Part shown: piece after piece, positions 16,170-19,351 of the stretch
Layout of the letters: each line of letters starts with the position of its first letter
How positions within the stretch are numbered: position 1 is the stretch's first letter
From: Escherichia phage wV7
Sequence record: NC_019505.1
DNA length: 64,000 bases
Reading direction: 5' to 3' (one strand)
Made by a program: the position numbers and the translations under genes
Notes under the pieces: generated by a model
The model's input: only the letters and a program-made list of their open reading frames with translations
Told to the model about the DNA's origin: nothing
The model's database searches: none

Positions 16170-16370
16170 ATGGTACAAAAATTAATGGCACTTGTTAATG
16201 CCATCAAAGGTAATAAGAAACGTATAGCTTTTACTATTTCTGCTATGGTAGGAATTTTACTCTGGAACTTTATTTTATCACCAATTGCAATTGCACATGG
16301 TGTTAATATTCCAGTAGTTACTCTTGATACATTTGTAGATTTAGCATTTGCTTTAGTTGGGTTAATTTAA
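16170..16370 (+). CDS. small hydrophobic protein on opposite strand (2 predicted TM segments)
   Basis: 66 aa; AAGGAGG Shine-Dalgarno 5 nt before ATG; convergent with gene 61 with overlapping stops. Confidence 0.4.
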   Translation: MVQKLMALVNAIKGNKKRIAFTISAMVGILLWNFILSPIAIAHGVNIPVVTLDTFVDLAFALVGLI

Positions 16371-17397: not shown

Positions 17398-17562
17398 TTA
17401 CTCTTCTTTTTCTTTAGATTCCTCTTTTTTCTTTTTAGGAATCTGTTCAGGACCTTTATTTACTACAGCGCCTGATGTTGTTCCAGTAGAGATATTTTCA
17501 GGATTACCACCTGAATCTCCAGCGACCATATCTTCTTTGATAAATTCTTTATATGTTTTCAT
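17398..17562 (-). CDS. small lysine/glutamate-rich protein with capsid-targeting-like N-terminus
   Basis: Manual call, 54 aa: MKTYKEFIKEDMVAGDSGG...KKKKEESKEKEE; N-terminus resembles T4 internal-protein CTS MKTYQEFIAE; coordinates approximate. Confidence 0.35.
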   Translation of the reverse strand: MKTYKEFIKEDMVAGDSGGNPENISTGTTSGAVVNKGPEQIPKKKKEESKEKEE

Positions 17563-17608
17563 ATTAACCTCTATTCATAAAAGCATTAAAAATTTGGTCA
17601 TCAATAGA
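17560..17608. repeat. direct repeat copy 1 (~49 bp)
   Basis: Near-identical to 17918..17966; spans stop of upstream gene and last 13 codons of downstream gene. Confidence 0.6.
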
Positions 17609-17920
17609 TGGAATAGCAACCTTTTCGGCATCATTTAGCAAATCATTAATTTCATCAGATAACATAACATATGTGCCTTTATTTCCTGTAATTGTTACTG
17701 CACAATTACGAACGTTTTCTTTATCAAATTTTAGGTTAATATTTTCGTAGTGAAAATCCTTTAATGCCGAATATATCTTTAAAATGAAATTGTCTTTTAC
17801 TACAATAAACCCAACCTCACTATTAAAACATGGTTCATGGAAACTGTAATAAACCTTTTCATCTATAAAATCGTATGAAATTTTTTCCATTTTTAAATAT
17901 GAAAATTCAGAACTATACAT
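17564..17920 (-). CDS. hypothetical protein (61.x cluster)
   Basis: 118 aa; C-terminus SIDDQIFNAFMNRG shared with upstream neighbour. Confidence 0.5.
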   Translation of the reverse strand: MYSSEFSYLKMEKISYDFIDEKVYYSFHEPCFNSEVGFIVVKDNFILKIYSALKDFHYENINLKFDKENVRNCAVTITGNKGTYVMLSDEINDLLNDAEKVAIPSIDDQIFNAFMNRG

Positions 17921-17966
17921 ATTAACCTTTATTCATAAAAGCATTAAAAATTTGATCGTCAATAGA
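17918..17966. repeat. direct repeat copy 2 (~49 bp)
   Basis: ~4 mismatches to copy 1. Confidence 0.6.
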
Positions 17967-18563
17967 AACATTTACTTTAGACTGTTCTTCAAACGGTAAT
18001 TCATATCCACATATTACAATTTTGTGATCGATACCAAAATACACAGAAGCAATATGATTAATATTATTTTCAGTGAAATCTAAATCAACATCAATATCTT
18101 TTTGACTAACGCTCAAAGGATAATTAATACGAATAATTCGATTATCTTTAACAAAGATTCCACCGACATACTCTGTGTTGCGTTTAAAGTTTACACGTTT
18201 CCTAAATGAAAAATATTCAGGTTCTTTATGAGCCCGACTCATAGGACACAATGAGTAGCTAGAATAAGAGATGTCAAATCCTACACCTTCAATATGAGCC
18301 AACGTGTCATGATTAAACCAATTATAATCATATGCCAAATCCATTATATTGTAATATGTGAAAGGCACCGGATTAACATCATGTGTTGTACCTTTAAAAT
18401 CTGCCCAGGCAACGATTTCGTTATCTTTAACAATTACAAAAATTGTGCCAATAAGATATCCACGGTTATTTTCATCAGGCGTTATATTATAACATTGCGC
18501 ATCAGGAAATTTACCGTATTTAAACGGTGGATTTTTGTGCATATAATAAATCATATTATTCAC
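17922..18563 (-). CDS. hypothetical protein (61.x cluster)
   Basis: 213 aa; C-terminus SIDDQIFNAFMNKG. Confidence 0.5.
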   Translation of the reverse strand: MNNMIYYMHKNPPFKYGKFPDAQCYNITPDENNRGYLIGTIFVIVKDNEIVAWADFKGTTHDVNPVPFTYYNIMDLAYDYNWFNHDTLAHIEGVGFDISYSSYSLCPMSRAHKEPEYFSFRKRVNFKRNTEYVGGIFVKDNRIIRINYPLSVSQKDIDVDLDFTENNINHIASVYFGIDHKIVICGYELPFEEQSKVNVSIDDQIFNAFMNKG

Positions 18564-18849
18564 CTGTGATTTCGGTTACGATATTTTTGTTATTAAAGTT
18601 TTTATCGCAATACAGAACATAATTATACTGCATTACACCACCTGATTTAAGCTGTTTTTGTACTTCAACTTTCATATTGGGGCGATCACGCTCAACGATA
18701 TTCATAATATCCGCTTCAATTTGAGTTTCAACTTCAGTCTGATCTGCAGTCATAGACCATTCACACAAGTCTTTATCATATCCTGCCATAGCAGGCTGAG
18801 CAGCACAAGAAGCCAAAGTAAAAATTGTAGCAAAAATAAATTTTTTCAT
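18556..18849 (-). CDS. sp: Spackle-like periplasmic protein
   Basis: 97 aa with signal peptide; size and position between 61 and 41 as T4 sp. Confidence 0.65.
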   Translation of the reverse strand: MKKFIFATIFTLASCAAQPAMAGYDKDLCEWSMTADQTEVETQIEADIMNIVERDRPNMKVEVQKQLKSGGVMQYNYVLYCDKNFNNKNIVTEITGE

Positions 18850-18909: not shown

Positions 18910-19221
18910 CTATTTTAAAACTTCTGTGTAATCACATGTTACAAACTGTTTCTCTAGCTTAACGATCTTACGAAAATACCTTTTACACTGACGAATCTGC
19001 CTCTTCGTAGGACGTACAGCAAACTTAATAAATTCCACTCGACCAAATGGAGGACTTTCTTCTGCTGGAATATCTAACACCAATTCCCACGTATCCGCAA
19101 TAAGTGCTTTGAATTGAGTATTTTTCCTGACGTTATACGGAGTAGGTTTAAATAAAACAATATGCATATTATCCTCGGCAATCCACTTCGCACACTTTCT
19201 TGTCATCAATGAAAGCTTCAA
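18910..19221 (-). CDS. hypothetical protein
   Basis: 103-aa ORF downstream of dmd. Confidence 0.45.
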   Translation of the reverse strand: MKLSLMTRKCAKWIAEDNMHIVLFKPTPYNVRKNTQFKALIADTWELVLDIPAEESPPFGRVEFIKFAVRPTKRQIRQCKRYFRKIVKLEKQFVTCDYTEVLK

Positions 19222-19351
19222 CTAATGCTTTATTAACTTCAGCATATTGAGTAGTAGCCCATTGAACGTCATCTTTCATCATTGCGATTTCTTTAGTAAA
19301 CATGCTTTCATTCTTAAACCACCCCATAAAAACTACCTTTACCAATTCCAT
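19169..19351 (-). CDS. dmd: Dmd (discriminator of mRNA degradation)
   Basis: 60 aa MELVKVVFMGWFKNESMF..., near-identical to T4 Dmd as recalled; own early promoter. Confidence 0.7.
   Translation of the reverse strand: MELVKVVFMGWFKNESMFTKEIAMMKDDVQWATTQYAEVNKALVEAFIDDKKVCEVDCRG

Follow-up and report, generated by a model that had tools for sequence, protein, structure and literature searches.

In the 64,000-nucleotide stretch of the Escherichia phage wV7 genome analyzed here (NC_019505.1; hereafter the window), two neighboring minus-strand genes end in the same conserved peptide of 14 residues, encoded in a 49-bp direct repeat that continues into the start of the following gene. The larger gene is, judged from its sequence, adfA (T4 gene 61.2). 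The smaller one, of 118 codons, is an old single-domain paralogue of adfA that carries an extra strand and helix together with the family tail. We consider it probable that the two are members of one small AdfA family confined to T-even-type phages, in which the shared tail is kept by selection and the tail with its junction acts as a joint for recombination.

The adfA locus

The window shows 100% sequence identity to E. coli O157 typing phage 7 and is also collinear with the T4 genome. The initial annotation had placed two ORFs at 17564..17920 (118 aa) and 17922..18563 (213 aa) and had compared their position to the T4 61.1-61.2 cluster. Both the ORFs and the position were confirmed, the gene order being primase 61, 61.1, the two ORFs, sp, 61.4, dmd and 41 (Table 1). 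The product of gene 61.1 in the window shows 96% identity to T4 gp61.1. The adfA frame is open upstream to GTG 18563, which would give 213 aa, and the gene is annotated in the public record KP869105 as 210 aa with ATG 18554 as its start. This ATG is located one base past the sp stop codon (TAA-T-ATG), the same junction that is found in both copies of the repeat; GTG 18563 is therefore probably not the start of adfA.

Table 1. Features at the adfA locus of the window
Feature	Position	Strand	Product	Remarks
gene 61.1	17398..17562	-	54 aa	downstream neighbor; PHROG 1823, E 7e-34
repeat copy 2	17560..17608	-		last 14 codons of 118-aa gene (SIDDQIFNAFMNRG), TAA, T, ATG of 61.1
118-aa gene	17564..17920	-	118 aa	half-size single-domain AdfA paralogue; PHROG 4122; RB32ORF033c / ar1_036 in relatives
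repeat copy 1	17918..17966	-		last 14 codons of adfA (SIDDQIFNAFMNKG), TAA, T, ATG of 118-aa gene
adfA (T4 gene 61.2)	17922..18554	-	210 aa from ATG 18554	anti-DarT factor A
sp (spackle)	18556..18849	-	97 aa	upstream neighbor; joined to adfA through TAA-T-ATG
tifA (61.4)	18910-19167	-		annotation of KP869105 and T4
dmd (61.5)	19169-19351	-		annotation of KP869105 and T4

The link of the larger ORF to adfA, previously based on position only, is strengthened by a full-length match to the Pfam AdfA family (PF23813; E 8.9e-138 and a score of 457 bits, the cut-off being 27), in which residues 4-213 of the 213-aa ORF align to positions 1-211 of the 211-position model. The ORF also matches PHROG 3781 with an E value of 1.7e-136, and it is found between sp and 61.1 in the window and in KP869105, as 61.2 is in T4. 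The overall identity between the window AdfA and T4 gp61.2 is 74%, the window allele belonging to a class with an N-terminal domain strongly unlike that of T4.

According to the published work, AdfA binds directly to DarT1, a DNA ADP-ribosyltransferase toxin, and inhibits it. The equivalent of residue R164 of RB69 AdfA is H167 in the window protein (210-aa numbering; codon 18054-18056, within the motif NNINH), based on an RB69-type protein that has NNINR at 168, which becomes 164 when counted from the MHKN start in the primers of PMC11257639. A histidine at this position marks the DarT1-neutralizing allele; the R164H variant of RB69 AdfA binds DarT1, and neutralization of DarT was obtained with RB69 AdfA(R164H) as well as with ectopic T4 AdfA (PMC11257639). 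Deletion of adfA in T4 gave no phenotype, even when adfN was deleted as well (PMC11257639).

The 118-aa protein is a single-domain paralogue of AdfA

The 118-aa ORF matches PHROG 4122 over its full length (1-118 on 1-118 of 118, E 2.7e-71), and cross-matches exist between this PHROG and PHROG 3781. The Pfam AdfA model detects the ORF with 32.6 bits (cut-off 27, E 6.6e-8) at model positions 129-211 only, and a precomputed PF23813 match is recorded for all five close clusters. The paralogy is also seen directly by BLASTP, with residues 21-118 aligned to residues 114-213 of the larger protein at 38% identity (E 3e-10), so that the similarity covers about 100 residues and extends beyond the tail. 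When the tail was removed, profile comparisons overall gave modest support (P 0.0015 to 0.065). The hhalign P values for the 118-aa protein were 0.0015 against the C-terminal half of AdfA and 0.0021 against the N-terminal half, values that come from shallow alignments and make the homology outside the tail statistically modest.

The AF2 model of the 118-aa protein (pLDDT 84.5 and pTM 0.73, from only 11 sequences) has the order β1-β5, α1, β6, α2 and tail helix. In the AF2 model of AdfA, which is of medium quality (pLDDT 67.5), the β1-β5 and α arrangement occurs twice, as two tandem β5-α domains, followed by the C-terminal tail helix. In neither model is this helix predicted with more than low confidence. 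The predicted topology of the 118-aa fold is that of each half of the AdfA model. The 118-aa protein thus shares the C-terminal domain and the tail with AdfA, but it is predicted to have one β5-α unit, the two-domain architecture of about 210 aa being absent from its AF2 model. A Foldseek search of BFVD returned family members only, among them one protein of AdfA size (E 1.2e-4) and one of 145 aa (E 7.5e-4).

It could be supposed that the 118-aa ORF is a truncated adfA copy that has lost its function and is decaying in place, as its match to the AdfA model is confined to the C-terminal 40% and it is missing from many phages including T4. We regard such a remnant as highly improbable. By tblastn, 332 phage records match the 118-aa protein, and 330 of these have an intact gene of full length; the gene is under purifying selection (dN/dS 0.21-0.34) and its product has a confident AF2 fold. 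It also has its own start beside a Shine-Dalgarno-like sequence, homologues of similar length in other genera, including 119-aa proteins of Gaprivervirus with 46% identity, and 141 T2-type records have no other member of the family.

The 118-aa protein is probably a toxin-neutralizing binder with a specificity other than that of AdfA, and is put forward here as a candidate. In the window protein, the specificity histidine is absent, N72 (NVRN; codon 17705-17707) being the aligned residue, and a divergent 118-aa allele (L021 / P0005) has a histidine at this position (NVLH). T2 has been described as lacking an adfA homologue (PMC11825919), and the 118-aa gene is the sole AdfA-family member at the T2 locus. 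The sensitivity to DarTG1 of T2 with adfN deleted (PMC11257639) is indirect evidence that the 118-aa protein at its native level does not neutralize that DarT1. It is noted that T4 AdfA likewise does not neutralize that DarT1 at native level. A literature search for RB32ORF033c, the name of the 118-aa ORF in a relative, found no papers.

The 49-bp repeat encodes a conserved tail and the junction to the next gene

The direct repeat at 17560-17608 and 17918-17966 claimed in the initial annotation is present, with 46 of its 49 nt (94%) identical and a spacing of 358. The identity runs from a Ser codon to the ATG of the next gene, and a degenerate tail pattern (≤3 mismatches) is found at only these two sites in the 64-kb window, with 0 expected from 100 shuffles. 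The shared C-terminal ending SIDDQIFNAFMN(R/K)G of the 118-aa and 213-aa ORFs was also reproduced, the ends being SIDDQIFNAFMNRG in the 118-aa ORF and SIDDQIFNAFMNKG in adfA. In copy 1, the last two codons contain AAAGG, which presumably serves the 118-aa gene as its Shine-Dalgarno sequence; in copy 2, the presumed Shine-Dalgarno sequence for 61.1 is AGAGG, so that both the ribosome-binding site and the start codon of 61.1 are inside the repeat. In T4, adfA directly adjoins 61.1, and its end has the same sequence as copy 2. The repeat is the coding sequence of a tail peptide plus the junction to the next gene.

The tail peptide is conserved well beyond the window. In the form DDQIFNAFM(N/K)(R/K)(G/D), it ends AdfA, the 118/119-aa proteins and 145-aa proteins of Dhaka/Gaprivervirus-type phages, being kept in RB69-type, Dhaka-type and Gapriver-type phages, and every family tail is followed by the TAA-T-ATG of the next gene. 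Its core, DDQIFNAFM, is invariant: 15 distinct tails have 0 non-synonymous changes, with 6 codons varying synonymously. The initial annotation had named a tail not conserved in relatives, or a lack of similarity to the T4 61.x proteins, as evidence that would count against its reading; both were looked for, and neither is the case. Since the protein is invariant and synonymous sites vary across genera, the DNA identity of the repeat reflects mainly purifying selection on the peptide plus codon bias. In the window, 11 of 13 tail codons are the same against 7.6 expected, a marginal excess (P = 0.036). The last ~14 nt are kept alike also as the ribosome-binding site and start of the following gene, and through this junction adfA-family genes may be translationally coupled to the next gene. 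The tail is probably a helix by which all family members dock to one common partner, or one that mediates self-association.

A role of the tail in clamp binding was also considered and is unsupported. The C-terminal ends of gp43 (SLDFLFG) and gp55 in the window were considered in this connection, and no other ORF of the window shares the AdfA tail.

The similarity of the two copies had been taken in the initial annotation to indicate recent duplication or gene conversion. In such a reading, the 3' part of adfA would have been duplicated in tandem not long ago, with the repeat kept alike by the short time elapsed or by frequent gene conversion. This would fit genes that are adjacent and paralogous with a 94% identical repeat, and copies that differ by 0-1 nt in PinkRuby, CrRp10 and slur02 are compatible with occasional conversion or with crossover within the repeat. 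The gene bodies, however, are identical at only 111 of 234 nt (~47%), and their shared codons are below chance, with identical residues outside the tail using the same codon in 8 of 27 cases against 14.6 expected from codon bias. Moreover, counterparts of both genes are present in other T-even genera, dS among 118-aa alleles is already between 0.5 and saturation, tail-bearing pairs exist in another genus with a different upstream partner, and the tail varies synonymously across genera with no amino-acid change. Recent duplication is thus largely refuted, and we give it very little credence.

It is also conceivable, though unlikely, that the repeat is primarily a DNA or RNA element, serving as a portable regulatory cassette (a promoter, a terminator or a structured region for translation initiation) or as a dedicated recombination site for cassette shuffling. 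A Shine-Dalgarno-like sequence, the stop and the next start all lie in its last ~14 nt (A(G/A)AGGTTAATATG), which co-segregate with the downstream gene; sp and adfA are joined by the same junction, which survives in T2 and RB10 as a 12-nt linker. By eye, a MotA-box-like TGCTTT is seen in the Tequatrovirus tail, with TAATAT 12 bp on. Against a nucleic-acid element, the synonymous sites of the tail core vary, those of TGCTT included (GCT/GCC/GCA), under an invariant peptide, and a ribosome-binding site does not require the repeat's 5' 35 nt. The minimum free energy of RNA structures at the repeat junctions was no better than that of shuffled sequences (z 0.5 and 1.75), and a search of the repeat for promoters and terminators gave promoter-like matches at background level and no terminator.

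Recombination at the repeat among natural phages

Four natural states of the locus are observed directly. Both genes are present in 156 records, the 118-aa gene only in 141 records (T2 included) and adfA only in about 160 records (T4 included). Neither gene is present in at least RB10, this count being a lower bound from the listed single-piece matches because two-piece joins inflate the coverage count. These population counts were taken from junction-spanning BLAST queries, since a pattern scan of IMG/VR yielded 16 loci only, and the records counted are phylogenetically non-independent. The 118-aa gene is found behind both allele classes of adfA, and phages with adfA only are also found in both classes. 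T2-type phages keep a 12-nt linker that resembles the adfA 3' end, and in RB10 the same linker is fused to 61.1.

These states also bear on whether the 118-aa protein could be a partner or regulator of AdfA, for instance in a heterodimer formed through the domain or the tail that tunes specificity. The shared domain and tail, the tight coupling of the genes in the 156 records with both, and a tail helix predicted to be undocked, as for an interaction peptide, would be in keeping with such a role. However, the 118-aa gene occurs with no adfA in 141 records, adfA occurs with no 118-aa gene in about 160, and in Gaprivervirus the upstream partner is a different family member; we consider this role quite improbable.

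The sequence ending of the repeat copies follows the downstream gene. The K-type ending (AAAGGT) is located before the 118-aa gene in 104 records and before 61.1 in 3, and the R-type ending (AGAGGT) before 61.1 in 463 records and before the 118-aa gene in 2, a tracking that is partly expected from linkage, given a distance of 10 nt between this site and the following ATG. Direct comparison of alleles revealed breakpoints at the repeat copies, resolved to segments and not to single nucleotides. Between the window and CrRp10, the divergence steps from 34/330 to 3/309 at a repeat copy (p 9e-8). Between the window and L021, it steps at both copies, from 19/330 to 60/309 to 10/330 (p 1e-7 and 1e-11). 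It should be mentioned that part of what is seen with L021 could also arise from faster evolution of the 118-aa gene, but the opposite step seen with CrRp10 could not. In addition, L005 has a hybrid tail, and the two repeat copies of PinkRuby are homogenized, with 49 of 49 nt identical.

The earlier suggestion that the repeat is a substrate for deletion is supported: in nature it behaves as a substrate for both recombination and deletion, as seen in the four states, the breakpoints at the copies, and the hybrid and homogenized tails. Because the same ~49 bp ends each cassette, homologous recombination of the T4 type would use these ends as joints. Cassettes would be deleted, replaced and occasionally homogenized at their tails, which would produce the natural polymorphism of both genes, adfA only, 118-aa gene only or neither. 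The direction of individual gain and loss events is what we infer.

Possible roles in counter-defense

AdfA is among the few characterized phage inhibitors of a DNA ADP-ribosylating toxin. A conserved and selected half-size paralogue of it in ~300 sequenced T-even phages is a candidate for a new anti-defense specificity, and the shared C-terminal peptide offers a concrete target of mutagenesis for the docking partner of the family.

A more speculative proposal, which we hold to be possible but doubtful, is that the genes are modular counter-defense cassettes, that is, interchangeable one-domain and two-domain toxin-binding modules of varied specificity with DDQIFNAFM as a common docking helix, the repeat being maintained partly for swapping. 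If so, the helix would dock a common partner, the 49-bp joint would let phages swap cassettes of the anti-TA island with downstream expression undisturbed, and T2 and its relatives would carry a cryptic half-size anti-toxin factor against a DarT variant or another toxin.

The locus in any case shows cleanly how, in nature, a short coding repeat can be the joint at which counter-defense genes are gained, lost and exchanged between alleles, and such behavior matters for how stable engineered or therapeutic T4-like phages are. It does not represent a new kind of system, as the main gene is known and such mosaicism is expected in T4-type genomes.

Comparison with known systems and breadth of the family

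In T4-type genomes, short repeats that flank small non-essential ORFs are joints for shuffling and deletion by phage recombination. PeSLs are non-coding mobile regulatory units of these genomes, composed of an early promoter and a stem-loop. The repeat of the adfA locus resembles PeSLs in that short repeats act as recombination joints beside small ORFs. Unlike PeSLs, it is coding, lacks a stem-loop and gives promoter signals at background level only.

The genes dmd (61.5, anti-RnlA), tifA (61.4, anti-ToxN) and adfA (61.2, anti-DarT) make up the proposed anti-TA island of T4, and other genes of this region have been named explicitly as antitoxin candidates (PMC9391042). The locus described here is in the same block and shares with the island its small early toxin-binding genes and its recombination-driven evolution (PMC9391042). 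The laboratory events reported at the T4 island were segmental amplifications of dmd-tifA through microhomologies (PMC9391042). In contrast to these, the changes found here are natural differences in gene presence and allele swaps at a coding 49-bp repeat.

For the wider family, an exhaustive hmmsearch against 1.84 billion representatives found only 6 proteins. The clusters obtained in word-indexed searches numbered 5 and 67, every one of them belonging to T-even-type phages or to contaminants derived from these. The 145-aa family (PHROG 8539; JS98 ORF030c, VR7 ORF039c) occupies the slot directly downstream of sp and has the same tail and TAA-T-ATG junction. Its body, however, is barely alignable to AdfA or to the 118-aa protein (hhalign P 0.01-0.05 when the tail is excluded; the Foldseek match is the one given above), and its downstream neighbor is a second tifA-like gene instead of 61.1. 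VR7-type phages have a 119-aa homologue of the 118-aa gene next after the 145-aa gene, and the two are accompanied by a 45-nt repeat at 91% identity.

Identity and boundaries of the locus

The window derives from a T4-type phage which, over the 1.6 kb compared, is 100% identical to E. coli O157 typing phage 7 and 99.6% identical to AR1. Genes on the minus strand follow the order 56, 61 (primase), 61.1, 118-aa ORF, 213-aa ORF, sp, 61.4, dmd and 41 (Table). A plus-strand ORF of 66 aa, also present in T2, lies between gene 56 and the primase gene; the corresponding T4 position is occupied by the dam methyltransferase gene, which the window does not have there.

The initial annotation had connected this region with adfA by position only. 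The 213-aa ORF matches the Pfam model PF23813 (AdfA) over its entire length with 457 bits, falls in PHROG 3781 and shares 74% identity with T4 gp61.2; it is AdfA. The product of adfA (T4 gene 61.2) inhibits DarT toxins (PMC9391042), and deletion of adfA in T4 gave no phenotype, also in the absence of adfN (PMC11257639). The R164H variant of RB69 AdfA binds DarT1 in a two-hybrid assay (PMC11257639), and window AdfA has a histidine at this specificity position (NNINH, residue 167, which matches RB69 164 after allowing for the start codon used in that paper). Of three candidate starts, ATG 18554 (210 aa) is more likely than GTG 18563 because it is the annotated start and lies a single base past the stop codon of sp. 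The third, ATG 18542, follows from the primers and residue numbering that PMC11257639 gives for RB69.

Features of the sp-61.1 region and its surroundings in NC_019505.1
Feature	Coordinates	Strand	Remarks
66-aa ORF	16170-16370	plus	"hypothetical" in the public record KP869105
118-aa ORF	17564..17920	minus	ends in SIDDQIFNAFMNRG
213-aa ORF (adfA)	17922..18563	minus	ends in SIDDQIFNAFMNKG
Repeat copy ending the 118-aa gene	17560-17608
Repeat copy ending adfA	17918-17966
MotA-like stretches	17565-17600, 17923-17958	minus	TAATGCTTTT, then TAATAT 12 bp on
adfA allele-class region	18360-18554		N-terminal ~65 residues; MIYYMHKNPPFKYGKF... vs MLYQMHKCKDTYKYKG...
Candidate adfA starts	18542-18563		GTG 18563, ATG 18554, ATG 18542 (MHKN...)

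A half-size paralogue of AdfA

The 118-aa ORF matches PHROG 4122 (E 2.7e-71) and appears in the annotation of relatives as ar1_036 or as RB32ORF033c, and for the latter name no paper was found. It scores 32.6 bits against the AdfA Pfam model (cut-off 27), at model positions 129-211 only. In BLASTP its residues 21-118 align with AdfA 114-213 (38% identity, E 3e-10), so the similarity covers a whole domain and extends beyond the tail. Profile-profile comparison of the tail-less sequences gave modest scores in the same direction for the C-half (P 0.0015) and the N-half (P 0.0021) of AdfA. AlphaFold2 predicts for the 118-aa protein (pLDDT 84.5, pTM 0.73) five strands, a helix, a strand, a helix and a separate low-confidence tail helix, and for AdfA (pLDDT 67.5) a five-strand-plus-helix unit twice (3-78, 100-173) followed by the tail helix. 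On these models, we read AdfA as the product of a tandem duplication within the gene, and the 118-aa protein as a single-domain relative. The locus can now be annotated as adfA together with a half-size paralogue.

The AdfA family occurs only in T-even-type phages. An HMM run exhaustively over 1.84 billion representatives hit six proteins, and Foldseek against predicted viral structures matched family members only. Tail-bearing variants of other sizes, namely BFVD A0A449C4E3 (Yersinia phage fPS-65, 157 aa) and two family proteins of 120 aa (P0069) and 125 aa (P0061), extend the family beyond the three subfamilies analysed.

Age of the pair

The initial annotation took the shared tail and repeat as a sign of recent duplication or gene conversion; of these, recent duplication is wrong. 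Outside the tail, aligned codons of the two genes share 111/234 nucleotides, and identical residues use the same codon in 8/27 cases vs 14.6 expected from window codon usage. Gaprivervirus VR7 carries, after sp, a comparable tandem pair of a 145-aa gene (PHROG 8539) and a 119-aa homologue of the 118-aa protein (46% identity); both proteins end in DDQIFNAFMKR(D/G), and the genes have a 45-nt repeat in common with 91% identity. The same tail is present in RB69-type AdfA. The 118-aa gene is under purifying selection, with dN/dS of 0.21-0.34 and dS among alleles from 0.16 to saturated, and is intact in 330/332 phage records with a match.

In VR7 (L004 1859-2080) and seven other compared loci (L006, L010, L011, L013, L015, L016, L019), a second 61.4 (tifA)-like gene comes next after the tail-bearing gene or genes. 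In these Gaprivervirus/Dhakavirus-type phages it is joined to them via TAA-T-ATG, and the other 61.4-like gene lies upstream of sp.

What the repeat encodes

The tandem genes do share a C-terminal tail within a direct repeat of 49 nt, whose copies were identical at 46/49 positions with a spacing of 358 in a repeat search. Each copy, in coding orientation, starts at a Ser codon, takes in the stop TAA and a single T, and ends at the next gene's ATG. A degenerate pattern allowing 3 mismatches found no further tail match in the 64 kb (0 expected).

The nine-codon core DDQIFNAFM is free of amino-acid changes in all 15 distinct tail sequences compared (38 genes), and 6/9 codons vary synonymously (GAT/GAC, CAA/CAG, ATT/ATA, GCT/GCC/GCA, TTT/TTC), a signature of selection acting on the peptide rather than the DNA. 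In the window, 11/13 identical-residue tail codons are the same vs 7.6 expected (P = 0.036). The DNA identity is mostly accounted for by codon bias. After every tail come TAA (or TGA/TAG), a single base and ATG; A(G/A)AGG, presumably the ribosome-binding site of the downstream gene, sits within the last two tail codons. In the repeat, RNA structure did not exceed that of shuffles, promoter-like sites were not enriched, and terminators were absent. By eye, Tequatrovirus tail DNA resembles a T4 MotA-dependent middle promoter; the resemblance is probably coincidental because the start site would fall past the next gene's ATG. The TGCTT of this stretch varies in other genera (GCC/GCA).

Natural arrangements and recombination

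That the repeat is a substrate for deletion or recombination, as initially proposed, is supported by natural variation among Tequatrovirus phages, whose sp-61.1 interval occurs in four states. By record counts, which are phylogenetically non-independent, adfA plus the 118-aa gene is found in 156 (window, AR1, RB51), the 118-aa gene only in 141 (T2, PP01) and adfA only in about 160 (T4), together about 459, which is near the number of records with a tail directly before 61.1 (466). Neither gene is present in at least the RB3/5/6/7/9/10 group, phiC600P9, BP32 and Nami. In T2-type phages, sp and the 118-aa gene are separated by a 12-nt linker, TTAGAGGTTAGT, similar to the adfA 3' end; in RB10 the same linker is fused to 61.1.

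The final tail codons are associated with the gene that comes next. After AAAGGT, this is the 118-aa gene in 104 records and 61.1 in 3; after AGAGGT, it is 61.1 in 463 records and the 118-aa gene in 2. One of the latter two, ON528746 (Shigella phage ESh36; H93 / H167), matches the 118-aa gene over residues 1-101 only, and its locus may be rearranged.

The most direct evidence for recombination at the repeat copies is the abrupt change in divergence there. Between the window and CrRp10, divergence is 34/330 in the last 330 nt of adfA, 3/309 in the 118-aa body and 8/330 in the 330 nt downstream (Fisher p 9e-8, adfA vs 118-aa gene); for L021, a phage with a divergent 118-aa allele, the values are 19/330, 60/309 and 10/330 (p 1e-7 and 1e-11). 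L021 carries a divergent 118-aa cassette apparently bounded by both repeats. In the adfA-only phage 101112UKE3-1 the tail is a hybrid, its 5' part of window-adfA type (GACGAT) and its 3' part 61.1-proximal (AGAGGT), as a crossover within the repeat that deleted the 118-aa gene would yield. In PinkRuby the copies are identical at 49/49 positions. We infer the direction of single events, deletion or insertion.

Two sharply distinct adfA allele classes (compared with loci L001, L029 and L031) have 35-70% DNA identity in the N-terminal ~65 residues vs about 90% in the C-terminal half, which points to an additional mosaic boundary within adfA. Both classes precede the 118-aa gene (window class in the window, BECP11 and L021; T4 class in CrRp10, VIPECOOM03 and slur02), and both occur in adfA-only phages. 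In the partial genome of ECO4 (L023, MF001360, about 975-985), the T5 run of the adfA tail has lost one nucleotide (TTTTT to TTTT), which puts the last 9 codons out of frame and cuts the ORF short; this is either a true frameshift or a sequencing error in the homopolymer.

Possible function of the 118-aa protein

An anti-TA island of dmd, tifA and adfA has been proposed (PMC9391042). Homology, this island context and purifying selection suggest, tentatively, that the most likely role of the 118-aa protein is that of a putative toxin-neutralising binder whose target differs from that of AdfA. T2 is said to be without an adfA homologue (PMC11257639, PMC11825919), and T2 minus adfN is DarTG1-sensitive (PMC11257639); therefore, at its native level, the T2 copy of the 118-aa gene fails to neutralise that DarT1. 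The tail helix, conserved and apparently not docked in the models, would be best explained as a family-wide contact, with a common partner or in self-association. The position aligned with the AdfA specificity histidine is Asn in the window 118-aa allele and His in the L021 allele.
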